A program made the position numbers and the translations under genes. This document shows positions 4,578-46,269 of a stretch of 64,000 nt of DNA, one piece after another; positions within the stretch are counted from its first letter, which is position 1; each line of letters starts with the position of its first letter. The notes under the pieces are model-generated. The model did no database searches and was not told the DNA's origin. It saw only the letters and a list, made by a program, of their open reading frames with translations. Source of the DNA: Dehalococcoidia bacterium (GTDB lineage: Bacteria > Chloroflexota > Dehalococcoidia > Lucifugimonadales > UBA1127); assembly GCA_965217675.1 (NCBI GenBank), contig OZ244559.1, positions 386,126 to 450,125 on the forward strand, in the 5' to 3' direction.

Positions 4578-5207
4578 CTAGTGCAGCGTGGAGCAGGCTG
4601 CTGGGAGCATGTGGCGGACGAGCTGCTGTACCGGGCGAGCGTCGGAGTGGGGGGGCCAGGCGCCGGACTCGAAGTAGACCTTGCGGACCTCGTCCCGGTG
4701 GGTCCAGTCCTTGTAGGGGAAGAGCTGGTAGAGGCGGTTCAGGTTGCCCAACTGGGAGGTGAAGATGCCTGCGACCGGGTAGATCTCGTTGCGGCCGGGC
4801 AGCGCCTCGCTGAAGGCCTTGGCGACGTTACGGATGTCGCCCGGAGCGTAGGTGTACTGGCGCAGCTCGTACATGCCGCCCCACTCCTGGGGGGTGCCGT
4901 CCCAGTCAGCCACGCCAGGGATGGGGTCCAGGATGTCGGTTTCCTGGGTGACGATCAGGTGGGAGGCGGAGGACGGCGGCCACTTGCCGCTGGTGTCCTT
5001 GGACGCTGTCGCACGAGTGTCCGCGCGGTGCTGAAGGTTCTCATAGGGCCAGATGTGGATGACCTCGTTCAGGGGGCCGATCTCCGTCTGGAACAGGGCG
5101 CCGAGCGGCGAGTACTGGGCGCGGACCTCGTAGGCCTCGCAGAAGGCCCTGACCCACTCACCCGTCTTGCCCGGCTGCAGGATGTACCGTCGCATCTCAT
5201 AAATCAT
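4578..5207 (-). CDS. NIPSNAP family protein (two NIPSNAP domains)
   Basis: MIYEMRRYILQPGK... and a second YELRQYTYAPG... repeat, the classic NIPSNAP N-terminal strand motif. Confidence 0.8.
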   Translation of the reverse strand: MIYEMRRYILQPGKTGEWVRAFCEAYEVRAQYSPLGALFQTEIGPLNEVIHIWPYENLQHRADTRATASKDTSGKWPPSSASHLIVTQETDILDPIPGVADWDGTPQEWGGMYELRQYTYAPGDIRNVAKAFSEALPGRNEIYPVAGIFTSQLGNLNRLYQLFPYKDWTHRDEVRKVYFESGAWPPHSDARPVQQLVRHMLPAACSTLH

Positions 5208-5287
5208 GTGTCATTCCTCCTATGCGGAAGTGTTTCCCTTTCGGCGCGGGCAGTGTACCAGAGGCGAACGTTGCAAGCAAACGGCGC

Positions 5288-5974
5288 CTATGCCCGCTGC
5301 TCGCCGGTGGCGGCGAAGGTCTGCAGGCGCTGGAGCGCGGCGACTCGCTTCTCCACAGGGATATCCTTCGGCCCGCCGAGGTTGTAGGAATACATGATGA
5401 TCTCCGCGCACTCCTCCATGACCAGGTTGGCGTCGACCGCGGCGGGCACGTCGGGGCCGAACGTGAGGACGCCGTGGTTCTCCAGCAAGATGCCGCGCAG
5501 GTTGTCGACGCCGTTGAGCGCCAATTCGATGTTGTCCACGGACTCCTGTGAGCCGCGGGGGCCGTATTCGGCCACGGGAACTCCCTCGGCCATCCCGAAA
5601 CGCACCATGGGCTCGTAGGCGACGGGGAGCGCCCTGCTGGCAACGGCAAAGGCCGTCGCGTAGGGCGAGTGGGTGTGGAGCGCGCCGCCAGCGTCCGGGC
5701 GCGTCTTGTATACGATGCCGTGCATGGGGATGATCTCCGCGCTGATGGGCATGACGGAGCCGTCCAGCAGGTTGTTGTCCAGGTCAAAGAGGCCGATGTT
5801 GTCCATGGTGATCTGCGCAAGGTTGCTCACGGAGGTCAGCAGGAAGGTGTCGGAATCGGGAATTCGGGCGCTAATGTTACCGTGGTTGCTCTTGGTCAGG
5901 ATGCCGGAGTGCACCAGCCGCGCCGCAGCATCCGCGATGTGCTTCCGGTACTCTGAGAGCTTGGCCGTCGCCAT
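5288..5974 (-). CDS. Class II aldolase/adducin family protein
   Basis: Motifs HGNISAR, HTHSPYATAF and LENHGVLTFG of the fuculose-phosphate-aldolase-like fold. Confidence 0.85.
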   Translation of the reverse strand: MATAKLSEYRKHIADAAARLVHSGILTKSNHGNISARIPDSDTFLLTSVSNLAQITMDNIGLFDLDNNLLDGSVMPISAEIIPMHGIVYKTRPDAGGALHTHSPYATAFAVASRALPVAYEPMVRFGMAEGVPVAEYGPRGSQESVDNIELALNGVDNLRGILLENHGVLTFGPDVPAAVDANLVMEECAEIIMYSYNLGGPKDIPVEKRVAALQRLQTFAATGEQRA

Positions 5975-23265: not shown

Positions 23266-25029
23266 ATGATGGCTGCGTCGATCGTGAACGAAAACGTCCG
23301 TTATGAGCCGGACGAGAACCCGCCGCCGCTGGTCGCACTTGGCGCGGGGGCGCAGGCGACGATGCTCATCATCGCGCCTATCGTGCTGACGGTCGTCATC
23401 GTAGTGCGCATCGCGGAGGCGTCGGACAGCTACTTGGCGTGGGGCGTGTTTGTGGCGATGGTGGTGAGCGGGCTGACCACGGTGCTGCAGGCGGCGCGGT
23501 GGGGACGGCTCGGCTCCGGGCACCTGTTGATCATGGGGACGTCGGGGGCGTTCATCGCCGTGTGCGTGGCTGCCCTGGTCGTGGCCGGGCCTTCGACGCT
23601 TGCGAGCCTTGTTGTCATCTCCTCACTGTTCCAGTTCCTGCTGGCGGCGCGGCTGTCGCTGTTGCGCCGCATCTTCACACCGGTCGTGACGGGCACGGTG
23701 ATCATGCTGATTGCCGCCACGGTGGCGCCCGTGATCTTTGGGTCGCTGACGAGCGTGCCGGAGGGGACGGACGACATAGCGGCGCCCCTTGCGGCGGGAG
23801 TGACGCTGCTGGTGGTTGTGGGCATGGTTGTGCGGGCGCCGCCGTCGCTGCGGCTGTGGTCGCCGGTCATCGGCATTGCCTCGGGGTGCGCGGTAGGGGC
23901 TCCCTTCGGGCTGTACGACGTCGCGACGGTCGCGGATGCGGCGTGGTTCGGGGCGCCGTTCGGCGACTGGCCGGGCTTCGACCTGACGCCCGGCCGCGAG
24001 TTTTGGGCTTTGCTGCCGGCGTTCATCGTCGTGACGCTGGTGGGGGCCATCGAGACCATCGGCGACGGGGTGGCCATCCAACGAGTGTCGCGTCGACAGC
24101 CACAGGCGACGGACTTCCGCGTGGTGCAGGGCGCGCTCAACGCGGATGGCGTGGGCAACCTGCTGTCCGGTCTGGGCGCGACGCTGCCCAACACCACCTA
24201 CTCGACCAGCATCTCGCTGGCGGAGGTCACGGGCATCGGCGCGCGGCGGGTGGGCGTCATCATCGGCGTCATCATCTTCGCGCTGGCCTTCTTCCCCAAG
24301 TTTGCGGCGCTGCTCATCGCCATACCGGCGCCGATAGCTGCCTCGTACATCATGTTCCTCATGGCGCTGCTCTTTGTGCAGGGCATGAGGATTGTCGTCA
24401 AGGACGGCCTGGACCACCGCAAGGCATCCGTGGCGGGCACGGCCTTCTGGATCGGCGTGGGCTTCCAGAACGAGTGGATCTTCCCCGACCTGCTGGGCGA
24501 TGGCTTTCTGGGCATCCTGCTGGGGAACGGCATGACCTCCGGCGCGATAGTCGCAGTTGCGATGATGGTGTTCCTGGAGGTGACGGGCCCGCGCCGCAGG
24601 CAGTTGCGGGTCGACGTGGACCAATACACACTGCAAAAGCTAGGGGTGTTCCTGCGCGTGTTTGCTGCCAATGCCGGATGGTCCCTGGCGTCGGCGGAGC
24701 GGCTGGTGCTGGTGGGGGAGGAGACGCTGGCCAGCATGTCGGCCGAAGACGAGGGCCCGGACGATACGAATGGCCGCCGCCTCGTTGTGACGGCGCGCTC
24801 CGTCGGCCGAGACGCTGAGCTCGAGTTCATCTCGGCGACGGAAGGCGAGAACCTCGAAGACCGGCTGGCCTACCTCGGCGAGCACCCAGAGATCACCGAC
24901 GACAGGGAGATCTCCTACCGCCTCCTGCGCCACCTCTCGTCGTCCGTCAGCCACCACAAGTACCACGGCGTGGACGTGGTGTCGGTGAGCGTGACGAACG
25001 CGCCCCCTCGCGGCGATGCGGAGGGGTAG
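23266..25029 (+). CDS. NCS2 (xanthine/uracil/vitamin C) family permease with an extra ~140-aa C-terminal cytoplasmic domain
   Basis: Polytopic core with NCS2-like segments (GTSGAFIAV, TYSTSISLAEVTG). GGGGAGG RBS before ATG 23266. The tail 24604..25029 is soluble. Confidence 0.75.
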   Translation: MMAASIVNENVRYEPDENPPPLVALGAGAQATMLIIAPIVLTVVIVVRIAEASDSYLAWGVFVAMVVSGLTTVLQAARWGRLGSGHLLIMGTSGAFIAVCVAALVVAGPSTLASLVVISSLFQFLLAARLSLLRRIFTPVVTGTVIMLIAATVAPVIFGSLTSVPEGTDDIAAPLAAGVTLLVVVGMVVRAPPSLRLWSPVIGIASGCAVGAPFGLYDVATVADAAWFGAPFGDWPGFDLTPGREFWALLPAFIVVTLVGAIETIGDGVAIQRVSRRQPQATDFRVVQGALNADGVGNLLSGLGATLPNTTYSTSISLAEVTGIGARRVGVIIGVIIFALAFFPKFAALLIAIPAPIAASYIMFLMALLFVQGMRIVVKDGLDHRKASVAGTAFWIGVGFQNEWIFPDLLGDGFLGILLGNGMTSGAIVAVAMMVFLEVTGPRRRQLRVDVDQYTLQKLGVFLRVFAANAGWSLASAERLVLVGEETLASMSAEDEGPDDTNGRRLVVTARSVGRDAELEFISATEGENLEDRLAYLGEHPEITDDREISYRLLRHLSSSVSHHKYHGVDVVSVSVTNAPPRGDAEG

Positions 25030-25045
25030 GGGTAGGGGTAGGGGG
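25023..25045 (+). repeat. (GGGGTA)3-GGGGG G-quadruplex-forming motif
   Basis: GGGGTAGGGGTAGGGGTAGGGGG read directly from the sequence. It overlaps the permease stop codon (TAG 25027-25029) and marks the high-GC to low-GC transition. Confidence 0.8.
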
Positions 25046-25203
25046 TACTAAGAAATGCTGATTTCGCTGACAAAAATAACGCTATAAGCGACGCTGAAGG
25101 GCATTGCTTCTGGGGAACGCATGTCCTATTCTAGTTAGAGTGTCCAAACTGCACCACGTTAAATGATGACGGGTTCCTTATTGCTGTTGCAAGGAGTGGG
25201 TGG

Positions 25204-26043
25204 ATGACGGAGCAAGAGTCTACATTTCCTACAGGTGAACGGGAGACGCGTCGAGGACGTGGGCCAACGAGGCCGTTCCCGGTCACACCACTCTCTCATG
25301 CAATGCGTTTGCCTAGTAGCATTATGGAACACGGTGTTGATGGCAGAATTGTGAGGCTAACCCTTTTGGCAAAGTTAGATCAGACAGGTGAGTACAATCT
25401 AACGCGAGACGTAATGACTAGTTCATTCAAGTATGGATTGACTATTGGAAGCTACGCATCCTCAACCCTTGAAATAACGGATCAAGGTCGAGAGGTGTTA
25501 ACTCTTGGCAACTTTTCAAGCCAAGCAAAGGAGAAGTTGTTTGAAATTGCAATAGGCCGAATTGATCCGTTTAACAAGGTCTATCTGAAACTGAGGGGTA
25601 GGCCGCTACCTGACGCAGATGTACTCAAGGATGAATTTAGTGCCCTAGGTATATCGGGAACGGACGGCCAGAAAGCTGCCGACGTCTTTGTTGACAACAT
25701 AAGGTACCTAGGAATGGTCGTGCAGATTAAAGGACGGGATCACGTTAGCACAATCGAGTCTGTACTTGAGCAATTACCTTCGGTTGAGGAAGTCACGGTT
25801 GACGTGGAAGACGACGTTCCCGAGTACGACAACGCCGAGGAGACGACGGTTGTTGAGCCACCCGCGCGAGAAACTGCCAATTCTACGCGCTCCGTAGTGG
25901 GAGTAGCCCGCCCAAGTGGTCCATCCAATGAACCTAGTGTCCACATAAATATTCAGATTCACATCGACCCTAGTTCAACTCCAGATCAAGTTGACCAGAT
26001 CTTTTCAAGCATGGCCCGTCACCTCTATGGACGCGAAGGTTAA
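25204..26043 (+). CDS. Hypothetical protein (279 aa) in the low-GC island
   Basis: AAGGAG RBS upstream of ATG 25204. About 45% GC. N-terminal basic RRGRGPTRPFP segment, two ~70-aa helical-looking modules, an acidic linker and a conserved-looking tail HINIQIHIDPSSTPDQVDQIFSSMARHLYG. No family recognised with confidence. Confidence 0.6.
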   Translation: MTEQESTFPTGERETRRGRGPTRPFPVTPLSHAMRLPSSIMEHGVDGRIVRLTLLAKLDQTGEYNLTRDVMTSSFKYGLTIGSYASSTLEITDQGREVLTLGNFSSQAKEKLFEIAIGRIDPFNKVYLKLRGRPLPDADVLKDEFSALGISGTDGQKAADVFVDNIRYLGMVVQIKGRDHVSTIESVLEQLPSVEEVTVDVEDDVPEYDNAEETTVVEPPARETANSTRSVVGVARPSGPSNEPSVHINIQIHIDPSSTPDQVDQIFSSMARHLYGREG

Positions 26044-26050
26044 TTGACCC

Positions 26051-26599
26051 TTGAATAGCTTAGGAAGTAGTAGGGATTGGCTTGCAATCGCCCAAGACCT
26101 GCAAAGTGAAGTGGATCAATTGGGCATGGGTAGGCCAAGCCTGACTTCAGACAAAGTGGACTTGCATGTACAGACTCTAATGAACCAGTTTGATGAAAGA
26201 GTAAATAATCCGAAACTGTATTCTGCTACTCGAAAGTTGTTTGAGGATGGTCACTATCCCCAGGCCGTAGAGGCTGCATTCAAGAGGCTCAACAATGAGG
26301 TAAAGAAGAGGTCGGGTCTTAGCGAGTTGACGGGTGAAAGCTTGATGCGAAAAGCATTTAGTGCAAGTAATCCAAGACTTCGCCTTAATTCCCTTCGTAC
26401 AATCTCGGATAAAGATGAACAACGCGGATATATGGATCTCTATGCAGGTGCGATGTCTGCCATAAGGAACCCGAGGTCACATGAGCACGACCTAGAAGAC
26501 GACCCTCAAGTAGCGCTGGAACTATTAACTGTCGCAAATCACCTGATGAACAAACTTGAAGCAAGTCAAAGGACGAGGCAACGCAAGACGAAATCATAA
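26051..26599 (+). CDS. TIGR02391 (Hypoth_Ymh)-family protein
   Basis: HYPQAVEAAFKRLNNEVKKRSGL...TGESLMRKAF......EQRGYMDLYAGAMSAIRNPRSHE...DPQVALELLTVANHLMNKL matches my memory of the TIGR02391/PF09509 consensus. It starts 8 nt after the upstream gene. The start is TTG 26051 or ATG 26126. Confidence 0.7.
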   Translation: MNSLGSSRDWLAIAQDLQSEVDQLGMGRPSLTSDKVDLHVQTLMNQFDERVNNPKLYSATRKLFEDGHYPQAVEAAFKRLNNEVKKRSGLSELTGESLMRKAFSASNPRLRLNSLRTISDKDEQRGYMDLYAGAMSAIRNPRSHEHDLEDDPQVALELLTVANHLMNKLEASQRTRQRKTKS

Positions 26600-26764
26600 C
26601 GTCCTCTGCTAAGCCGCCCAGTACTCTCGTCGGTACACTAGACGCTGCGTCATGGCGAATTCCCACTTCGCATCTCCATCCTCCCTTGGCGTATGCTTTC
26701 CGTGGAGCGGACGCGTCCCGCTGTGGACACTGCTCCCACTTGAACCTAAAGGGCATGACGCTGC

Positions 26765-27615: not shown

Positions 27616-28413
27616 ATGACACAGGTATTCAACGCGTACGCGGTTGGCGCCGCCAAGGGCATCGAGGAGCACGTGGCGTTTCTCGAGCCCACGCCCAAGC
27701 GCATCCGGGGGATGTTCGCCGGCGAGACGATTGTCGACTCGAGAAACGCGGTCATCATGTACGAGACGCGGCACCAGCCCGTCTACTACTTCCCACTCAC
27801 CGACGTGCGGATGGATCTGCTGAAGGAGACGGCCCACGACACCCACTGACCGATCAAGGGAGACGCTCAGTACTGGAGCGTCAAGGTTGGCGAGCGCGAA
27901 GTGGAGAACGCCGTGTGGGCGTACCCCGACCCGCTGCCGGACTGCGTGGACGCGCGCGACTACGTGGCCTTTTATTGGAACAAGATGGACAGCTGGTTCG
28001 AGGAGGACGAAGAGGTCTTCGTCGGGCCGAAGGACCCGTACACGCGGGTGGACTGCCTGGCGAGCTCTCGGCACGTCCGCGTCGAGGTGAACGGCGTGAC
28101 CGTTGCGGAGACGACCCGGTCCGTGATGATGCTGGAGACGGGGCTGCCGCACCGCTACTACATCCCCCGCGAAGACGTGAACGAGGACGTGCTGCGACCC
28201 AGCGAGCGCGTGGCGGGTTCGCCGTACAAGGGGGAGGCGAGCTTCTACCACGTCGAGGCGAGCGGCGAGGTGCTCGAGAACATCGCGTGGTCGTACGCCG
28301 AGCCGTGGGCGGAGTCGAGCAAGGTGGCGGGCTACATCTGCTTCCCGCAGGGCAAGGCCGACACCTACGTGGACGGCGAGCTGGAGCCGAAGCCGAAGAG
28401 CCGCTGGGACTAG
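27616..28413 (+). CDS. Tandem DUF427-domain protein read through one in-frame TGA (27847-27849): candidate selenocysteine codon or recent nonsense mutation
   Basis: ORFs 27616..27849 and 27901..28413 share a frame, and TGA is the only stop between them. The motif continues across it: DTH-[TGA]-PIKGDAQYWSV...NAVWAYPDP, compared with the second domain GSPYKGEASFYHV...NIAWSYAEP. AAAGGAGG RBS before ATG 27616. Confidence 0.6.
27862..27882 (+). promoter_or_regulatory. Hairpin 12 nt downstream of the in-frame TGA (SECIS-like candidate)
   Basis: Perfect 7-bp stem GACGCTC/GAGCGTC with loop AGTACTG. Confidence 0.35.
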
Positions 28414-38845: not shown

Positions 38846-39568
38846 CTATCGGGCGCGTCGGGCGGACACGTCGGCAGCGACTCCGAAATGGTCTGACAGC
38901 CTTGTATTGTCGTGGACGTTGCTGATCACCTCAGGGGGCTTCGCCGCCAAGTCCGAGCTCAGCACAATGTGGTCGATGCTCCCGCGACCCTCGAAGGCAA
39001 GCCCCGCAGTGGCGATGGTCATGCTCGACGGGAAGGCTTCCTGAAGCTTCAATTGCAGTTCACGTGGTGCGCGGCATCCCTTGCCGACAATCTGATTGAA
39101 GTCGCCCATCACTATCAGACGCTCCGCAGCATAGCCTTTGAGCACTTCAGTGAGACCGGTCAGATACTCCTCATGGTCTTCCCACCGCCTCTTGCGCTCC
39201 GGTCCTCGCCTTGTCTCAATACGCGACCCGAACCAGGGAATGCAGACCCCCACGACGGTGACCGCTCCAAGGGGTGTCTGCGTGACTCCGGACACGAACC
39301 GTCCGGGCGGAAGGGACTCCAATCCTACGTCGCTGACCTGCTCCCAAGGTTCCCTTGACCAGAGCATGACTTTCCGACGGTATTCCGTGGTCTTGTACCC
39401 ATAGTCAGCCTGCGAGCAGATCGAGTGACCGTGCCGAGAAAGCAGCCCGTTGTGCGTCTCAGTGAGGCACACGATGTCCGGGGCGTGTTCACCGATGCGG
39501 CGCAGGACCTCAGCGTTGCGCGTCGACTTGGGTGTAGCCCACTCGACATTCCAGTTGACCAGTTTCAA
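38846..39568 (-). CDS. Endonuclease/exonuclease/phosphatase (EEP) family protein
   Basis: MKLVNWNVEW, IVCLTE, MGDFN and the terminal SDHFGV motifs. Confidence 0.85.
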   Translation of the reverse strand: MKLVNWNVEWATPKSTRNAEVLRRIGEHAPDIVCLTETHNGLLSRHGHSICSQADYGYKTTEYRRKVMLWSREPWEQVSDVGLESLPPGRFVSGVTQTPLGAVTVVGVCIPWFGSRIETRRGPERKRRWEDHEEYLTGLTEVLKGYAAERLIVMGDFNQIVGKGCRAPRELQLKLQEAFPSSMTIATAGLAFEGRGSIDHIVLSSDLAAKPPEVISNVHDNTRLSDHFGVAADVSARRAR

Positions 39569-40094
39569 TTGCGTGGCTCCAATTCTCCGTCGTCAGTTGG
39601 GAACGGTGAGCGCATTTCCACAGTCGTCGCCCTGAGGACTGTTGTAACACAGATGATGTGTCGCGGTGCGGGACTTGCTGGGTTAGAGGAAACCTCAGGG
39701 TGAAGGCACTTGAGTTTGAATGGTCTGTTGGGCCGCGCGGGACTTGAACTTGGGCGCACTCCAGGGCTATTGGCGCAACATCAAAGTTGCCCCACCTCCT
39801 CTCGTCATTCCTGCGCAGGCAGGAATCCAGAGGGGCAGGGCGAAGGCGGGGCGTCCTCACCACCGGCCACTGTCGCGTAACCCCGAACGCCAGCCCCACC
39901 GCGAGGGCCATTCGCAATTCCGATCACCCTGAGGCTCTCGAAGGGCCGTCCCACTCTGCCCCCGCACGCCCTGACACCGCCCCCTTGCCCCGGCGCCACA
40001 GCCCACGCTACTGTGCCCGCATGCCACACGCACGCAACCTCCTTGAACAGACCCTCGCCCGCACGGTCCGCATCGATGGCCGCATGCGGTTCGG

Positions 40095-40505
40095 CTCCCA
40101 ACAGCAGGGAATTGTTTCAACACCGCGGAGCGTTCTTGCATTTGCTTTGTAGCTGCAATGCGTCATGACAGCTACAAAAGGATTGCCGAATCAAGGTTCC
40201 CTCAGCTACAAAAGGATTGCCGAAGCAAAGTTCCCCCAGCTACGCCGGCCCGTGAAAACAAACGCCCGAAACGCCGTCCTGCACCCGCGACGGCGGCGAG
40301 ACGCCGTGCCTGCACGTCTCCCAACAGCAGGGATTTGTTTCAGCGGGCGTTTGGCTTTCGCATTTGGATTTGTAGCTGCAATGCGTCATGACAGCTACAA
40401 AAGGATTGCCGAATCAAGGTTCCCTTAGCTACAAAAGGATTGCCGAATCAAAGTTCCCCCAGCTACGCCGGCCCGTGAAAACAAACGCCCAAAATGCAGC
40501 AGGGA
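40095..40505 (+). repeat. Tandem array (2 full units plus the start of a third, period 223 bp) of a ~180-bp element with a 10-bp hairpin and nested 34-bp subrepeats
   Basis: Unit starts CTCCCAACAGCAGGGA at 40095 and 40318, and CAGCAGGGA again at ~40497. Hairpins TTTGTAGCTG-N13-CAGCTACAAA at 40146-40178 and 40369-40401. The subrepeat CAGCTACAAAAGGATTGCCGAAkCAArGTTCCCy occurs twice per unit. Confidence 0.8.
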
Positions 40506-40530
40506 CCCTATCGCAAAGACTGACACTGAG

Positions 40531-40686
40531 ATGGCTGACGCCTCGGTCCGCATCAGGGAGCGCCGTGAGCTCAAAGAGCGGATGGAGGTCCCAGAAGATG
40601 AGTTGCGGCAGCTGTTGGCTGAGCGGCGGCAGTTCCTGGGCAGCGCCGCCACCATCGCCACCTTTGCAGCTACCCTTAACACCTAG
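40531..40686 (+). CDS. Possible small ORF (51 aa, coiled-coil-like)
   Basis: MADASVRIRERRELKERMEVPEDELRQLLAERRQFLGSAATIATFAATLNT. Translated by hand; it is below the ORF-track length cutoff. Weak RBS. Confidence 0.25.
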   Translation: MADASVRIRERRELKERMEVPEDELRQLLAERRQFLGSAATIATFAATLNT

Positions 40687-40767
40687 CCGCCCTCACTTCG
40701 TAGCACCAACCCGCCCGGCTTTCTACTAGGGATGGAGTGTTAGAATCGACGGGCAAGGAGGCGGATC

Positions 40768-41193
40768 TTGGCGCAAACGTTTGCAGTGGAAGAGGCAATT
40801 CAACGGCCCGCCCCTCAGGTGTGGGAGGCCCTCACCGATTGGACGAACGCCCACAGGTGGATGCCCGGAATCGACGGGATCACGGCCGAGGGAGAAACTG
40901 CCAAAGGGACGACGCTGACATTCCGCGCTCGCGGCGCAGACCGCTCAAGCACCATCGTCCACTGTGACGCCGGTCGATCGATAGTCCTGCGTCCGGTCCA
41001 GGGCGGTGTGACCGCCGACTACAGGTACGAAGTCCACGAGCTGGACGAGCGCTCGGCTCGCGTCATACTGGTCGCCGACTGTCAGATCACGGGGCTGTGG
41101 TGGAGCGTGGTGTCGCCCCTACTTCGCCTCGCAATCCGATTCTCCGACGGCAAGCAGTTAAGACTGCTGAAGGCCATGGTTGAGGGAGGCTAG
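40768..41193 (+). CDS. SRPBCC (START/polyketide-cyclase-like) family protein
   Basis: EEAIQRPAPQVWEALTDWTNAHRWMPGI is typical of SRPBCC proteins. TTG start 6 nt after an AAGGAGG RBS. Confidence 0.8.
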   Translation: MAQTFAVEEAIQRPAPQVWEALTDWTNAHRWMPGIDGITAEGETAKGTTLTFRARGADRSSTIVHCDAGRSIVLRPVQGGVTADYRYEVHELDERSARVILVADCQITGLWWSVVSPLLRLAIRFSDGKQLRLLKAMVEGG

Positions 41194-41215
41194 TGCCGTC
41201 GTCGGGGTCTCACAC

Positions 41216-41974
41216 TTAGCCGCTGGCGCTGACGGGCTGATGCGCCTGAAGGAAGCTGCGCACCTGCTTGATGGTGTCGGCCTTGATGTCCGGCGACTCC
41301 TTCCATGGATACACCGTCACTTGTGCCATGGGCGCCAACGCCGCCAGGTCCATGGCGGCCTCGTATGAGTGCGAGGGGGTGTCGTCGGGCATGACGAGCA
41401 TCGGCGTCTGGCACGAGCGCGCGAAGTCCCTCGACACGCAGTACACGAAGTCCGGCTGTATCCGGTAAAGGTTGTGCAGGTACTGGTCGACGACCTCCAT
41501 CGTTACCTCAGGCCGCTGGGAACACAACGCAGGGCCCCAGTTGTCGTGGCCCGAGTTGTACATGGAGTCCGCGGTCTTTTGCGCGTGCCCAACCGGCTGG
41601 CAGAGCACGGCGGCCAGGAGCCGTTCGGGGGCCCTTTCCATGAGCTTCATAGCAAAGGGGCCGCCGATGCAATAGCCAATGAAGAAGAACTCTTGTATTC
41701 CGAGATGGTCCATCAACCCCAGTTGGTCATCTGCGAAGGCGCCCCAGGGGTCGTCGACTTGCACGGGCCCACTGGACTCACCGCCAATCGCGTTGCGCTG
41801 GTCCATGGTAATGCAACGGAAGTCGTTCTTGAACTCCTCCATTGCGTTGAACACCTGTCGAGGCCAACCGTCGAGGATGGAATTCAAGCCCCCGCCGGGG
41901 ACCGCTAGAAGGGGGAACCCGGAGCCAACCTCCTCATACCGAATGCGGACATCGCCCTTCTCGAAAAACGGCAT
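41216..41974 (-). CDS. Alpha/beta hydrolase with Cys in the nucleophile elbow (GYCIGG)
   Basis: MPFFEKGDVRIRYEEVGSGFPLLAVPGGG..., FFFIGYCIGGPFAM. AGAGGAGAA RBS before ATG 41974. Confidence 0.85.
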   Translation of the reverse strand: MPFFEKGDVRIRYEEVGSGFPLLAVPGGGLNSILDGWPRQVFNAMEEFKNDFRCITMDQRNAIGGESSGPVQVDDPWGAFADDQLGLMDHLGIQEFFFIGYCIGGPFAMKLMERAPERLLAAVLCQPVGHAQKTADSMYNSGHDNWGPALCSQRPEVTMEVVDQYLHNLYRIQPDFVYCVSRDFARSCQTPMLVMPDDTPSHSYEAAMDLAALAPMAQVTVYPWKESPDIKADTIKQVRSFLQAHQPVSASG

Positions 41975-42312
41975 AGCAGCTTCTCCTCTTTGAGCCAAAT
42001 ATTGGCTTTCAAGGCAATTCTCACTTGGTAGCCCGGGATGTCAAGGCAACGGCACCCGGTAGAGTTTGGGAAGAAGCAGCCCTTTACCTGTCGGGAGGGA
42101 CGAGGCGCCATCAATGAGGCGACGGCTTCTAGCGCACCGGGTCGTCGCCTTGACCGCTTGAGTCATCTTGGGTTAGGTTCCACGCCAGAACGGGCAGACG
42201 GAGCATATGTCCGTACAGCACGCCGCATCCGGGTGTTGTGCTGCAGGTTCCGGCCCGCCTGCTCGTTGGATATCAAGATAGCTTTGCAACTCGCTGATGG
42301 AGGGAAATCGCC

Positions 42313-43074
42313 ATGCCGTTCTACGAAAGAGGCACCAACCGTATCTACTACGAAGAGGTAGGGTCCGGTTTCCCCCTGCTGATCATTCCGGGTGGCGGAC
42401 TCAATTCCACCGTGGCGTCCTTGCAGACGTCGGTGCCCTTCAACCCGATGGAGACCTACAAGGACGACTTCCGCGTCATTTCGGCCGACCTGCGCAATGC
42501 CCCACCGGGCCAGTCGAGCGGCCCGCTGGAGATCGACCGTCCCTGGGACGCCTACTCGGAGGACCAACTCGGGCTGATGGACCATCTCGGCATCAAGGAG
42601 TTCCTGGTCATGGGCTTCTGCATCGGCGGGCCGATGATCCACAACCTGCTCCGGTTGGCCCCGGAGCGCATTGTGGCGGCGGCTATGATGCAACCCAGCG
42701 GGTTCAGGCCGGAAATCCCGGATATCTTCTACCAGAACAACATTGCGGGCTGGGGTCCGCCCCTTTGCGAGAAGCGTCCTGAAATCACAATGGATATGGT
42801 CCACGACTTTCTGACCAATATGTACACCAACCGCGCCGACTTCGTTTTCACGGTTTCCCGCGACTTCGTGCGTGCCCTGCAGACACCGCTGCTGATAGCC
42901 CCCGACGACGTGCCGGCGCACCCGTACAAGTGCGCGATGGAGGTCGCCAGCCTCGCCCCGAACTCAGAGGTGACCATCTATCCCTGGAAAGACTCGCAGG
43001 AGCACATCGACGAGGTCGTGGAACACGCCCGGCGCTTCCTGAAGACCCATGAACCAGCAGTCGCGACAGCCTGA
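42313..43074 (+). CDS. Alpha/beta hydrolase paralog (GFCIGG nucleophile elbow), divergent from 41216..41974
   Basis: MPFYERGTNRIYYEEVGSGFPLLIIPGGG..., FLVMGFCIGGPMIH. Roughly half the residues are identical to the neighbour by eye. Confidence 0.85.
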   Translation: MPFYERGTNRIYYEEVGSGFPLLIIPGGGLNSTVASLQTSVPFNPMETYKDDFRVISADLRNAPPGQSSGPLEIDRPWDAYSEDQLGLMDHLGIKEFLVMGFCIGGPMIHNLLRLAPERIVAAAMMQPSGFRPEIPDIFYQNNIAGWGPPLCEKRPEITMDMVHDFLTNMYTNRADFVFTVSRDFVRALQTPLLIAPDDVPAHPYKCAMEVASLAPNSEVTIYPWKDSQEHIDEVVEHARRFLKTHEPAVATA

Positions 43075-43313
43075 CAACTCCGTCTTGCTAACACGAGTAA
43101 GGCCCCGCTACCTTCCTATCACACCGAGTGATGAATGAGAGTTGCGGGGCCTTCGAGTTTCGGCTGCCAAGGTCAGCTGCTAGTTCAGGTCACGGGTCCT
43201 GGGCAGAAATGTAGCATGAACCAGGACGGCGGCATGGTAGGGGTGTAACACAAGCTCCAGGTCGCCATGGTTATTGTTGCTGGCGTAATTCTGGCTACTG
43301 AGAAAATGTCGAT

Positions 43314-44411
43314 TCAGGCAACCGGCAACTCCCGGCCCGTGTCCGACGCTAGGGCGATGGTGTCGATGAAGCGATGCAGGCCAACCGCTACATCGAACGT
43401 CGGCAGGCGGTTCTGTCCGGTTCGGACCGCCTCGGCGAACAGGGCATACATCTGCCCGACGTTGAAGGGATCGCCCTGGGGGAAGTCGGACGGCACATAC
43501 ACGAAACGCTCAGGTATATCCAGGTCCTGCAGCTCATGGCTTCGCTGTGCCCCCTGCACCCGTAGCGTCTCACCGCGCTGCGACGAGACGCTCCCCGTGA
43601 TGATAAACGTGCCTTCCCGCCCGTAGATCTCCATTCGAAAGCCGCTGCCGGCCCAGGGGACAGCGCCAACATGGACTGACACTGCCGCGCCGCTCGCCAA
43701 CTGTCCGCTGACCCGCACGTTGTCCGGGGAGGTGACTTCCACAAATTGCTGGGTATCGGTCTCGTACCATTGCTTTGCCTGGGTGCTGACCATGCACGCC
43801 ACCCGGGTGAAGTTGCCAGCCACGAAGCGCAGGGCGTCAATGACGTGGCCGTTGGCGATGGTCAGAGTGTTTGCGCCCAGGCTGGCATCGCGCTGCCAAG
43901 TGCGGCTGGAAGGGCGCGCCAACCCACCATCGCGCATGGTGGTCACGTGGCACGAGAGCACCTCGCCCACATAGCCTGCTTCAATTTGTTCCTTGACATA
44001 CATCAATGCGGGACTAACTCGCGATTGCAGACCTACTGCGGTTTGCAAGCCTTTGTCACGGGCCAGAGCTGCAAGTTCCTCAGCTTCGGCAGTGTTTCGA
44101 CCCAAGGGCCACTCGGTGTAGACGTGCTTGCCGGCGTTGATGGCGGCCTTCGTTGCCTCATAGTGCAATGGCACCCGCACAACCACGGCCACTGCGTCGA
44201 TCTCTGGCGACACTACCATTGCCCGGAAATCATGGAAGGCGAGTTTCGCTCCAAAGGCTTGGCGAGCCTCTTCTGCGCTCTCGGGACGGGTGGTGCAAAC
44301 TGCCGTTAGCTCGACATCGGGACTGGCCAGGAGCGCCGGGAAGTGCGACTGAGAGGCCCAGGTCGAGTTTACGTTGGCACCCACAAACCCCAGACGGACC
44401 TTGTTTGCCAT
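43314..44411 (-). CDS. Gfo/Idh/MocA family oxidoreductase
   Basis: N-terminal Rossmann motif VRLGFVGANVNSTWA, and the EWPLG motif. Confidence 0.85.
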   Translation of the reverse strand: MANKVRLGFVGANVNSTWASQSHFPALLASPDVELTAVCTTRPESAEEARQAFGAKLAFHDFRAMVVSPEIDAVAVVVRVPLHYEATKAAINAGKHVYTEWPLGRNTAEAEELAALARDKGLQTAVGLQSRVSPALMYVKEQIEAGYVGEVLSCHVTTMRDGGLARPSSRTWQRDASLGANTLTIANGHVIDALRFVAGNFTRVACMVSTQAKQWYETDTQQFVEVTSPDNVRVSGQLASGAAVSVHVGAVPWAGSGFRMEIYGREGTFIITGSVSSQRGETLRVQGAQRSHELQDLDIPERFVYVPSDFPQGDPFNVGQMYALFAEAVRTGQNRLPTFDVAVGLHRFIDTIALASDTGRELPVA

Positions 44412-44667
44412 GACGCGTGCTCCTTTTATATATTGCTGGCATCCTGCACTCTTCTGGGAGTAGTCAGCTAGCAGCGCAACTGACCTTTCGACTGCTTCCC
44501 AATAGGAGGGCTGATACCCTCCGGAGAATCTAAGGCTCTTGAGAAAAGCCCTCCCGACCTCGCGAAGAAAGTGGTCAGAAACCTGCTTGGCAACAATTCA
44601 TCGGTAGGCGCCAAGGTGCTAGAGTCGTCAATGTCCTATCTAAAATGGGGCTTTGGTGGCGTCCGGG

Positions 44668-45582
44668 CTAGTGGCCGGACAGCCACTCCCTGAGTGCCCG
44701 GATATGGTCGGGTCTCGTGCCGCAGCACCCTCCAATTATCCGCGCACCCTGCTCACTCCACCCCTTGGCGTATTCCAGGTACTGCTGTGGGTCCAGGGCG
44801 TTTGCCATAGGGGTTGAGCCTTCGTGGCCGGGGAAGTGGGCGTAGGCGCCGAAGGTTCCCGACCAATTCTTCTTGACTATCTCCAGCCCGGGCCCCGTGT
44901 CGTCCACCGGCGTGTGCATTATGAATACCGATGCGATGTCCTTGTCCTTGATGGCGTCCATGGCGTCTTGAAGGTTCTCGTTTCCATGCCTGCCTTGGAT
45001 GCCCAGATAAAGCCCGTCTCCATCCCTGACCACGGAGAGCCCGACCCACACCGGGAGACCCAACTCCGCTGCCGCTTCAATCACCGCCAGCGCGTCTGAT
45101 ATCCGGACCAACATCTCGCCCACCGCCACGTCCGGGCCGCCTTTGGCCAGCTCTCCCAGCTGCTCCCGGTAGGTCACCAGAGCTTTCTCATAGGGCACCG
45201 GAACTTCCGGGTGTTCCTTGGGAGCCATAGTAGATACAGAGGCTGCGATGACCACCAAGTCCTCTGTCCCGGCGTTTCTCCTTGCCTCTACCGCCGCTTC
45301 TATTCCCAGCTTGTTAGCCTCGGCTACCTTGTACTCGAGGCCGCCCTCTTCCAGCATGTCACGCCCTGTGGCAAAGGTGTTTGTGATGATAATCTCGGCG
45401 CCCGCTTCTATGTATTCCTGATGAATATCCCTCACCAACTCGGGATGGGTGAGCATCGGACCGCCCGACCACGTGGTAGGGCTTGCCAGCCCTCGAATTT
45501 CGAACTCCGAGCCCATACCCCCGTCCATCAGGATCGTCTCCCCCGCTGCCAGGCGGCCCTGCAATTTCTCAAAGTTGCTCAT
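44668..45582 (-). CDS. Homocysteine S-methyltransferase family protein
   Basis: ILMDGGMGSEF, IITNTF, and the C-terminal zinc-site motif GGCCGTRPDHIRAL. Confidence 0.85.
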   Translation of the reverse strand: MSNFEKLQGRLAAGETILMDGGMGSEFEIRGLASPTTWSGGPMLTHPELVRDIHQEYIEAGAEIIITNTFATGRDMLEEGGLEYKVAEANKLGIEAAVEARRNAGTEDLVVIAASVSTMAPKEHPEVPVPYEKALVTYREQLGELAKGGPDVAVGEMLVRISDALAVIEAAAELGLPVWVGLSVVRDGDGLYLGIQGRHGNENLQDAMDAIKDKDIASVFIMHTPVDDTGPGLEIVKKNWSGTFGAYAHFPGHEGSTPMANALDPQQYLEYAKGWSEQGARIIGGCCGTRPDHIRALREWLSGH

Positions 45583-45692
45583 CTTTCTCTCCTGGTGAAA
45601 TCCGAATTTGCCGTTCCATCCGGGCGCCAGACATTCATCTCAGAGGCTTGGGGCGCGGGCCTGTGTAATTCCGACTCCCGGTGCGGCTGAGA

Positions 45693-45930
45693 CTCGCCAG
45701 GAAAGATCTTGACGGGGTTGAATCCCGCATCGGGCAGAAGGCTGCCCGCAGCCGCTTCGTCGCAGCCATGTCCTGCTCGGTGAATGCCCAGTGCATGTAT
45801 ATTTGCTTCTCCCCCCGATGCCGTGCTCCTCGGTAAGAGCTACCCCTGGGTCGATGTACACCCGCATCACCTCACGCCCTGCCTCGATGACCCGACCCTT
45901 CATCTGACCTGCCTCCTGGATTGGATCCAC
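45693..45930 (-). pseudogene. C-terminal relic of an FAD-linked oxidase (GlcD family), truncated and frameshifted
   Basis: Readable only across three frames: GRVIEAGREVMRVYIDPGVALTEEHGIG | EKQIYMHWAFTEQDMAATKRLRAAF | DAGFNPVKIFPGE. This matches the ..GEHGIG..K..YM...F.......M..lK.aFDP.gilNPGKIFP tail of GlcD-like enzymes. About 400 N-terminal aa are absent. Confidence 0.55.
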
Positions 45931-45952
45931 GAAAACCTAGAATCCGACCAGC

Positions 45953-46181
45953 CTATTCCTTCTTCTCCAGTATGGGAACTCCCGGGGCGCTCGGTTACCC
46001 AAAGCACAGTGGGGACGGACGGCATTGCAGTCATTACGCCAAGTTTCCACGATGCGACGAGCTGCAGGCAAGCGCGTGGACAGTGTCCGCTGAGACACTC
46101 GTTTCGGAAGCGTCAGTTGAAGCTCTCAATGAATTGGGAATCGATGAACGGCAAGCCGCCTTGGGTACCATCTACCGTCAA
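45953..46181 (-). mobile_element. Relic of an IS3-family transposase (C-terminal rve region), degraded
   Basis: Hand translation gives ..GGLPFIDSQFIESFN*RFRNECLSGH.. then, after a frameshift, ARRIVETWRNDCNAVRPHCALGNRAPREF. This matches the IS3 OrfB tail (FIESFNGRLRDECLN...A...IE.WR.DYN..RPHSALGY.TP.EF). It contains an internal TGA and a frameshift. No inverted repeats were identified. Confidence 0.6.
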
Positions 46182-46194
46182 TAATTGTCCTATC

Positions 46195-46269
46195 TGGTGG
46201 GCCCGGATGGATTCGAACCATCAACCCAACGATTATGAGTCGTTTGCTCTGCCCTTGAGCTACGGGCCC
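46195..46269 (-). tRNA. tRNA-Met (anticodon CAT), elongator type (tRNA-Ile2 not excluded)
   Basis: Cloverleaf on the reverse complement. Acceptor GGGCCCG/CGGGCCC; D arm GCTC..GAGC; anticodon stem AACGA/TCGTT with loop CTCATAA; T arm GATGG-TTCGAAT-CCATC. CCA is encoded. 75 nt. Confidence 0.9.

Follow-up and report, generated by a model that had tools for sequence, protein, structure and literature searches.

A 64,000-nucleotide (nt) stretch of DNA from a Dehalococcoidia bacterium (assembly GCA_965217675.1, contig OZ244559.1, forward-strand positions 386,126 to 450,125; hereafter, the window) contains a foreign-looking insert of 1.7 kb with two genes, flanked by a xanthine/uracil-type permease on the left and a DedA/VTT protein on the right. 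We propose, with modest confidence, that this insert is a horizontally moving module of the toxin-antitoxin or abortive-infection type that sits in a defense hotspot, and that the product of its first gene (geneA) is a sensor that is docked to a ribonuclease (RNase) encoded by its second gene (geneB). If this is correct, then the module represents a compact and widespread candidate anti-phage system in which a short, near-invariant peptide couples interchangeable sensors and effectors.

A predicted HEPN ribonuclease behind a winged-helix-like protein

The two genes and the relevant parts of their products are as follows (positions are those of the window; aa, amino acids; pLDDT, predicted local distance difference test).

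25204 to 26043, + strand: geneA, 279 aa, ATG start, with AGGAG 7 nt upstream; proposed sensor or regulator subunit, of an unnamed family
25249 to 25281, + strand: basic arm RRGRGPTRPFP, geneA residues 16-26; family consensus RRGRGPxKPFP
25288 to 25773, + strand: two winged-helix-like domains, geneA residues ~29-101 and 106-190; AlphaFold2 pLDDT >90
25774 to 25932, + strand: disordered linker of geneA; pLDDT 46-66, gappy and unconserved alignment columns
25933 to 26040, + strand: conserved tail of geneA, PSVHINIQIHIDPSSTPDQVDQIFSSMARHLYGREG, residues 244-279 (36 aa); proposed docking module
26051 to 26599, + strand: geneB, 182 aa, TTG start, with GAAGG upstream; HEPN protein of the Ymh/TIGR02391 family, proposed RNase effector (toxin)
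26066 to 26119, + strand: N-terminal amphipathic helix of geneB, SSRDWLAIAQDLQSEVDQ (residues 6-23), and then GMGRP; the tail is proposed to dock here
26465 to 26482, + strand: HEPN catalytic motif R-N-P-R-S-H of geneB, R139 to H144 (Rx4H)

GeneB belongs to the Ymh family. Residues 54-169 match Hypoth_Ymh (PF09509; E = 4e-32, 110.9 bits, cut-off 25) over profile positions 5-119 of 119, and the protein also matches TIGR02391 (E = 5e-22, 78.4 bits, cut-off 39.45). Furthermore, R139, N140, P141, R142, and H144 are invariant in 33 homologs of geneB. Because geneB is well above the cut-offs for both models and has the invariant RNxxxH, we take it to be the effector, and we predict that it is a toxic RNase. 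Anantharaman et al. (2013, PMC3710099) give Rx4-6H as the hallmark of RNases of the HEPN superfamily; among the HEPN families that carry it they include Ymh, for which they predict an RNase site and describe restriction-modification (R-M) and abortive-infection (Abi) contexts. GeneB also matches the C-terminal domains of two PADLOC models (PD-Lambda-3_B, E = 2e-15; Aga_HEPN, E = 2e-14). The AlphaFold2 model of geneB is all-alpha (pLDDT 88) and begins with the helix at residues 6-23.

GeneA does not match any family in Pfam (E ≤ 0.1), NCBIfam, or PHROGs. Its family is real and conserved: one search found 153 homologs, and a wider search found 2525 cluster representatives at E ≤ 1e-3, of which 233 were at E ≤ 1e-30. 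In the AlphaFold2 model (mean pLDDT 81), the order of helices and strands in the two domains is typical of a winged helix. A Foldseek search with this model gave weak matches only, and all of them were to winged-helix proteins (SelB, the FokI recognition domain, PadR, and F93). Within the basic arm, which we take to resemble an AT-hook, P26 does not vary, and the conservation of R19 is 90% or higher (two alignments of the geneA family). The linker is acidic in the window's copy, but its length and composition vary across the family. Given this predicted architecture, we suggest that geneA is a nucleic-acid-binding subunit.

A previous reading of this DNA from its sequence alone (the sequence-only reading) had described geneA as a protein without a nameable family, and our profile searches agree. 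The alignment and the AlphaFold2 model both confirm its layout for geneA (a basic N-terminus, two modules, an acidic linker, and a conserved tail), and its assignment of geneB to TIGR02391/Hypoth_Ymh was right. It also reported good ribosome-binding sites for both genes, which correspond to the AGGAG and GAAGG listed above. Finally, it described the genes as tightly linked with a gap of 8 nt. The tight linkage stands, but the gap is 7 nt (the genes are on the same strand).

One tail, several kinds of effector

To see how widely the pair is found, we rely on a scan of one genome per species (185,579 species), which identified 182 relatives of geneA or of its tail, so the distribution is sporadic. 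Locus counts are for the best 80 of these. The 80 tail-bearing loci are from at least eight phyla. A full-length homolog of geneA is present at 34 loci, which are mostly in metagenome-assembled genomes of Chloroflexota/Dehalococcoidia, with some from Acidobacteriota and Latescibacterota. At the other 46 loci, the protein has only its last 35-45 residues in common with geneA; these loci are from Actinomycetota, Bacillota, Pseudomonadota, Armatimonadota, Bacteroidota, and others. Among 36 of the tail-only proteins, 31 contain DUF5343 and 35 match PDC-M34A, which is a component of a candidate system in PADLOC. When we aligned the geneA family to the set of DUF5343 proteins with hhalign, the alignment was limited to the tail (E = 4e-30).

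We considered whether the body of geneA might be a divergent DUF5343 (PF17278), and rejected this: there was no Pfam hit, and hhalign with the bodies only gave a probability of 8%, for 39 columns around the 'LRxLGL' segment of a winged helix. As far as these sequence comparisons can tell, the two kinds of body have no demonstrable relation.

The consensus of the tail is PSxHIDIQIHIDSxASxEQIDQIFASMARHLYGRE, and P244, H247, H253, I254, F267, M270, L274, and Y275 are invariant in the alignment of the geneA family. The tail includes a terminal helix (residues 260-275, pLDDT 88). The mean pairwise identity of 78 distinct tails is 72%. At the nucleotide level, the identities at the three codon positions are 0.75, 0.89, and 0.40, which implies selection on the peptide and not on the DNA. 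We also rejected the idea that the last codons of geneA are kept because they form the ribosome-binding site of geneB, as a 4-mer resembling a Shine-Dalgarno sequence is present at only 30 of the 80 junctions.

What follows the tail is nearly always a recognizable effector (78 of 80 loci), and the two genes overlap or are separated by at most 10 nt at 76 of 80 loci. In 56 of the 80 loci, which were found via geneA or via the tail, the gene directly downstream and on the same strand encodes a Ymh protein. The other 24 loci have DUF4145, which is in the HEPN clan (about 20 loci), bSEFIR (3 loci), pP_pnuc_1/Aga_Nuclease (1 locus), or a protein without a family (1 locus); in all, 22 of these 24 have a different, non-Ymh effector. 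In the bSEFIR loci, which are from Actinomycetota (L041, L061, and L080), a DUF5343-plus-tail protein is followed by a bSEFIR protein of ~290-325 aa. In L059, a DUF5343-plus-tail protein is followed by a pP_pnuc_1/Aga_Nuclease protein. The downstream protein of L029 (224 aa) has neither a family match nor the N-terminal helix that is described below, and one of the DUF4145 loci (L065) looks degraded.

Many of these effectors open in a similar way. The N-terminal helix in homologs of geneB has the motif W-L-x-x-A-x-x-I-Q-x-E-V-D-x-x-G-L-G-R-P, and a similar helix is found at the start of many of the DUF4145, SEFIR, and nuclease effectors (compare WLAIAQDLQSEVDQLGMGRP from geneB, LFEAAKAIQEEVTRQTGPPEEG from the DUF4145 effector of L036, and FKNVLQAVQLIQTDLS from the SEFIR effector of L041). 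A profile of the helix that was built from Ymh proteins matches 9 of the 24 non-Ymh effectors, and in each of the nine the match is N-terminal, at residues 4-25. The background for this profile is about 15 hits in 9,600 open reading frames (ORFs). Ymh proteins that are fused to another N-terminal domain do not have the helix. For instance, in P0138 and P0154, which are Ymh-HEPN proteins, a ~130-aa N-terminal domain (it begins with MPYYHVRITQKSNQWHDEVRLDL) replaces the helix region.

We looked for two other signs of a link between the tail and the effector. Candidates for natural fusions of the tail to an effector were discarded, as the apparent single ORFs turned out to be in different reading frames. 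Also, variants of the tail did not correlate cleanly with variants of the effector's helix.

The body of geneA can also be joined to an effector within one chain. Of the top 150 representatives of the geneA family, 73 have the tail, and 19 have instead a C-terminal extension of 175-198 aa. All three of the extended proteins that were scanned match PADLOC's model of a TIR effector (E = 5e-9 to 2e-6). The extension contains the motif ADLSFxNPNVFYEL and does not match a Pfam family, and the fusion proteins retain the basic arm of geneA. Thus, bodies of one kind are linked to effectors in two ways, covalently or, presumably, via the tail, and the body-TIR proteins appear, from their sequences, to be the single-chain counterpart of the two-gene module. 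(P0331, P0334, P0348, P0371, and P0379, which have 390-490 aa, consist of the double winged-helix body and a C-terminal domain of ~180 aa.) Sequence searches against solved structures gave no significant match with geneA, with geneB, with the tail peptide, with the DUF5343 proteins as a set, or with the TIR-like domain of the fusions.

The permease-DedA slot is a defense hotspot

The insert (25030-26690) has a GC content of 0.485. In 295 other equal-sized segments of the same 64 kb, the mean is 0.645 (standard deviation 0.024, minimum 0.588), which gives z = −6.8 for the insert. In 300-nt steps, GC falls from 0.63-0.70 to 0.44-0.51 across ~25030-26690, and there is no second strong dip elsewhere in the window. 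The GC content of third codon positions (GC3) is 0.461 for geneA and 0.448 for geneB, as compared to 0.84-0.95 for the neighboring AmtB, permease, DedA, and DUF427 genes. The same holds more broadly: the slot between permease and DedA has a GC of 0.48-0.52 versus 0.65-0.67 for its flanks in the window and in the relatives that we compared, and across 56 loci, GC of the module is more than 5 points below that of its flanks in 44 (the median difference is −8 points).

Two relatives have the pair in the same slot. In L081, both genes are intact, with ~89-91% nucleotide identity to the window. In L025, the flanks are 85-95% identical to the window's but the cargo has diverged, and it has done so unevenly. 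The DNA that encodes the body of geneA cannot be aligned (identity 0.37-0.47), whereas homology with the window resumes at the start of the tail, and the tail and geneB have identities of ~0.66-0.75. At the protein level, the body of geneA is 34% identical and the core of geneB is 76% identical, which makes L025 a clear outlier among 33 loci. By this comparison, the body of geneA in L025 is exchanged relative to the tail and the effector.

Other relatives share the order AmtB-permease-[slot]-DedA-DUF427 but have different cargo. L084 (3928-5738) and L086 (3928-5745; minus strand) contain a pair that resembles PD-T4-2: a GmrSD_N/DUF262 protein (NsnA, E = 1e-56; PD-T4-2_A, E = 3e-31) and a HEPN_RiboL-PSP protein. 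These two cassettes are only 65% and 48% identical, while the DedA proteins of L084 and L086 are 89-96% identical to the window's, so the cargo of the slot changes, by divergence or replacement, much more quickly than the flanks do. L091 has a lone PycTM-like gene (4833-5306; this is the transmembrane domain of the Pycsar effector, with a Pfam hit and weak PADLOC hits). The ~700 nt after this gene appear not to code for protein, and the gene calls include no cyclase. We did not recognize anything in the slot of L085, where an ORF of 208 aa looks spurious as it has no homolog among the other slot proteins that we compared. We did not find remnants of geneA or geneB in those relatives' slots that have other cargo. 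With a different left flank, L087 (4007-5452), as well as L088 and L089, has a gene with a SocA_Panacea domain, next to a gene for a 233-aa protein of no known function, upstream of a more distant DedA ortholog (83%); this looks like a Panacea-type toxin-antitoxin pair. Another of the distant relatives has no cassette. In short, the same slot holds different defense-type cargo with atypical composition, and it is a defense hotspot. To find one in uncultured bacteria of the Dehalococcoidia type is of interest because defense systems have been little studied there.

Elsewhere, L082 has a homologous pair flanked by prmA and a GTPase gene, and in L083 such a pair lies within a type I R-M operon, with hsdS on one side and hsdR on the other.

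The sequence-only reading had noticed the abrupt drop in GC after the permease's stop codon, and it viewed the insert as a horizontally acquired cassette. Both views hold up, the latter because of the foreign composition, the unrelated sites in other genomes, and the variation of the slot among relatives: the pair is present in L081 and L025, other cargo is present in L084, L086, and L091, and hence the pair is not syntenic in all relatives. Like us, that reading found no integrase and no direct repeats at the insert; we also looked for a tRNA, without success. Its suggestion of a two-component defense module or something like a toxin-antitoxin gains support from the conserved pairing, with Ymh as the most common partner, and the gene pair does recur in other genomes. 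Most occurrences, however, are outside of classical defense islands. The portable tail, the interchangeable effectors, and the hotspot go beyond what it saw.

These data also bear on the idea that the pair is a housekeeping one, with geneA as a transcription factor for the transport genes, geneB in RNA processing, and the low GC due to amino-acid composition. Both genes are intact at the same site in three related genomes, as one might expect for housekeeping genes. However, a GC3 of 0.45, so far from that of the host genes, is not expected; close relatives lack the pair in the same slot and have defense cassettes instead; and the pair is found at unrelated sites in other phyla, with the sporadic distribution that was described above (182 relatives among 185,579 species). 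We consider a housekeeping role to be very improbable.

How the module might work

In our proposal, geneB would be a HEPN RNase of the Ymh family that acts as the effector, or toxin, and geneA would be the nucleic-acid-binding subunit, with its basic arm, two winged-helix domains, flexible linker, and 36-aa tail. The tail would dock onto the N-terminal helix of geneB, and geneA would thereby hold and control the RNase. A trigger that is sensed through the body of geneA would then free or activate the HEPN domain. This trigger might be phage DNA, a phage protein, or the loss of geneA itself when the host's expression is shut off. Once active, the RNase would cut RNA and halt the growth of the infected cell. 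The tail and the helix could thus serve as a portable plug and socket by which unrelated sensor bodies are joined to unrelated effectors.

Several observations weigh against this proposal. First, the putative contact between tail and helix is suggested by their co-occurrence, and the helix profile reaches the non-Ymh effectors weakly (E = 0.009 to 5). The tail is also far more conserved than its proposed partner helix, which simple docking fails to explain, and docking would leave the three invariant histidines of the tail unexplained. Second, the structural matches are below significance: E ≥ 0.1 for the predicted fold of geneA, and E > 1 for all of geneB's top PDB matches, which include HEPN proteins. 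Third, there are the genomic contexts. Among 124 neighbors from 31 loci, R-M families are the most frequent, but the majority are housekeeping and not defense genes, and we found no relatives of the module in the viral contigs of IMG/VR, the phages of INPHARED, or the plasmids of PLSDB. (A DUF5343-type query against the plasmids had no match either.) Fourth, by PADLOC's models the pair is not a complete system of any known kind, and none of the 15 effectors that we scanned (geneB, six non-Ymh proteins, and another eight) matches PDC-M34B. Finally, we did not find a sigma-70-type promoter, an intrinsic terminator, or an inverted-repeat operator at the cassette.

The most obvious alternative is that the pair is an ordinary type II toxin-antitoxin addiction module, which would be selfish and would have no role in phage defense. 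On this view, geneA would act as an antitoxin, labile and autorepressing, and its tail would neutralize the HEPN toxin. A small operon of two genes, with a DNA-binding-like protein upstream, a toxin domain downstream, and tight or overlapping junctions, fits such a module. The scattered and mostly housekeeping neighborhoods fit as well, as does the Panacea-type cassette upstream of DedA in a related genome. Also, one tail with several types of toxin recalls promiscuous antitoxin domains. In contrast, the covalent fusion of the same body to a TIR-like effector fits a sensor better than a neutralizer; the slot in sister genomes holds relatives of validated defense systems; at one locus, hsdS and hsdR flank a homologous pair; and no operator-like repeat was found upstream. 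We view an addiction module without a defensive role as unlikely, although it and our proposal are not mutually exclusive. If it were true, then the finding would be a modest one, and the conserved tail would still need explaining.

Another possibility is direct immunity: geneA would be a targeting subunit that directs the HEPN RNase to phage DNA under transcription or to foreign nucleic acid, the phage's transcripts would be cut, and the cell would survive. This would make use of the predicted nucleic-acid-binding architecture of geneA (the basic arm and two winged helices). Like a specificity subunit, the body of geneA varies among close relatives while the effector is kept, and the R-M operon context is suggestive. 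But the HEPN effectors of characterized systems are usually indiscriminate RNases that cause growth arrest. Furthermore, PD-lambda-3, whose second protein has a Ymh domain, behaves as an abortive infection system, and the alternative effectors (SEFIR or TIR-like) are typical suicide effectors. So, direct immunity seems quite improbable to us.

Returning to our proposal of a docked sensor and RNase, a bolder version of it is that the tail and the N-terminal helix of the effector are a universal, portable docking pair that links unrelated sensors to suicide effectors across at least eight phyla, and that these proteins form a hitherto undescribed family of split sensor-effector defense systems. 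The sensors would include DUF5343 and the double winged-helix family, among others, and the effectors would include Ymh-HEPN, DUF4145-HEPN, SEFIR/TIR-like proteins, and a pPIWI-associated nuclease. Recombination at the boundary of the tail would swap the sensor and keep the effector, as in the window versus L025. In this version, the tail would be nearly invariant, its three histidines included, because it has a further role, for example in metal-dependent self-assembly or in binding a conserved host factor. We offer this generalization tentatively, and it may well be too broad.

If the tail does couple sensors to effectors, then it would be a handle for finding further pairs, and a natural plug and socket for engineering. 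Our results also provide a first functional context for the unnamed family of geneA (~2,500 cluster representatives), for DUF5343, and for many stand-alone proteins that are annotated as 'TIGR02391 family'.

Comparison to known systems

That a small module is based on a HEPN protein and is of the toxin-antitoxin or Abi type is familiar. What is new is the double winged-helix partner, the tail that is shared with DUF5343 proteins, and the interchangeable effectors. As judged from the sequence features that we tested, the pair is distinct from PD-lambda-3, from HEPN-MNT, and from PDC-M34.

As a member of the Ymh family that is above the curated cut-offs and has an intact Rx4H motif, geneB is in the 'solo' form that was noted by Anantharaman et al. 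(2013), and one homolog is in an R-M operon. The treatment of Ymh in that paper (PMC3710099), as far as it is covered here, describes neither an obligatory upstream partner with a tail nor a common N-terminal helix. In the literature that we searched, Ymh is mentioned together with HEPN in only two papers, of 2012 and 2013.

Another relationship is to PDC-M34, a PADLOC candidate whose component A is DUF5343. The PDC-M34A proteins end in a tail of geneA's type and are followed by the same kinds of effectors. DUF5343-type tail proteins match PDC-M34A over its full length, with E values down to 4e-49. In contrast, residues 223-274 of geneA match only profile positions 156-207 of 208 (the last 52 positions; E = 0.012), and the body of geneA is not DUF5343. 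Our search of the literature found no mention of DUF5343 or PDC-M34.

PD-lambda-3 is a two-gene system from E. coli with an abortive-infection phenotype (Vassallo et al., 2022); in the table of a review, it is entered with a PD-(D/E)XK nuclease domain. Its second protein has a Ymh-like C-terminal domain, and geneB matches PD-Lambda-3_B at positions 136-266. However, PD-Lambda-3_B has a ~135-residue N-terminal domain where geneB has a helix region of 50 residues, and geneA does not match PD-Lambda-3_A.

Proteins of the AbiJ type follow the same logic with the same repertoire of effectors, in that a variable N-terminal module is combined with Ymh, DUF4145, or a TIR-like domain. Specifically, AbiJ-NTD modules are fused to HEPN, Ymh, DUF4145, TIR, and other effectors in single chains, according to the relevant part of PMC3710099. 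Here, the sensor and the effector are separate polypeptides, which are presumably joined via the tail and the helix, and geneA does not match AbiJ.

HEPN-MNT and other HEPN-based toxin-antitoxin pairs are likewise small two-gene modules in which the toxic partner is a HEPN RNase. In HEPN-MNT, neutralization is by AMPylation. Neither geneA nor the flanking genes that we scanned have a nucleotidyltransferase domain, so we do not expect neutralization of the AMPylation type.

The effectors that follow the tail also match models from the effector sets of short prokaryotic Argonautes (Aga_HEPN, pP_pnuc_1/Aga_Nuclease, and bSEFIR). However, there is no Argonaute or APAZ gene here, and the tail-bearing partner is small, with either winged helices or DUF5343. 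Finally, the exchangeable docking domains of modular polyketide and non-ribosomal peptide synthases offer a parallel: the upstream protein contributes a short element at its C-terminus, and the downstream protein a short N-terminal helix. This is an analogy only, as there is no relationship in sequence, the biology is different, and docking is putative in our case.

Edges of the insert and other observations

The remaining features of the insert are noncoding or are at its edges.

25021 to 25046, no strand assigned: G-run repeat GGAGGGGTAGGGGTAGGGGTAGGGGGTA at the left edge of the variable slot; it spans the permease's stop codon (25027-25029)
25030 to 25203, + strand: AT-rich leader of geneA; its ribosome-binding site, AGGAG, is at 25192-25196
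26600 to 26697, + strand: 3' spacer with the box CGTATGCT at its end (26690-26697); right edge of the slot

The insert begins at the stop codon of the permease, where GGAGGGGTAGGGGTAGGGGTAGGGGGTA (repeat family D13) consists of four runs of 4-5 G with TA between the runs. G-runs are also present at the left edge of the slot in L025, L085, and L091. This pattern could presumably form a G-quadruplex. It could be a recombination-prone edge, a substitute for a terminator, or merely the result of encoding a glycine-rich C-terminus.

The right limit is ~70 nt upstream of the ATG of DedA (26765), at the box CGTATGCT. The box is kept in seven related genomes (the window, L081, L025, L084, L085, L086, and L091), regardless of cargo; CGTAT is invariant and the sixth position is the single variable base. 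DedA is probably transcribed from a promoter that has this box as its -10 element. Downstream of the box, the related genomes share only a weak consensus structure. We found no Rfam match for the region of the box and no known RNA element in or around the island.

We also considered the stretch at 39000-46000, where GC is mildly lower (0.58-0.61) and which adjoins a tRNA-Met (46195-46269, minus strand), and we set it aside, as its ORFs look like ordinary metabolic ones and we did not see an integrase-like ORF. Lastly, two DUF427 (PF04248) genes lie side by side downstream of DedA (27616-27849, 77 aa; 27901-28413, 170 aa), and this arrangement is kept in all of the relatives that we examined.

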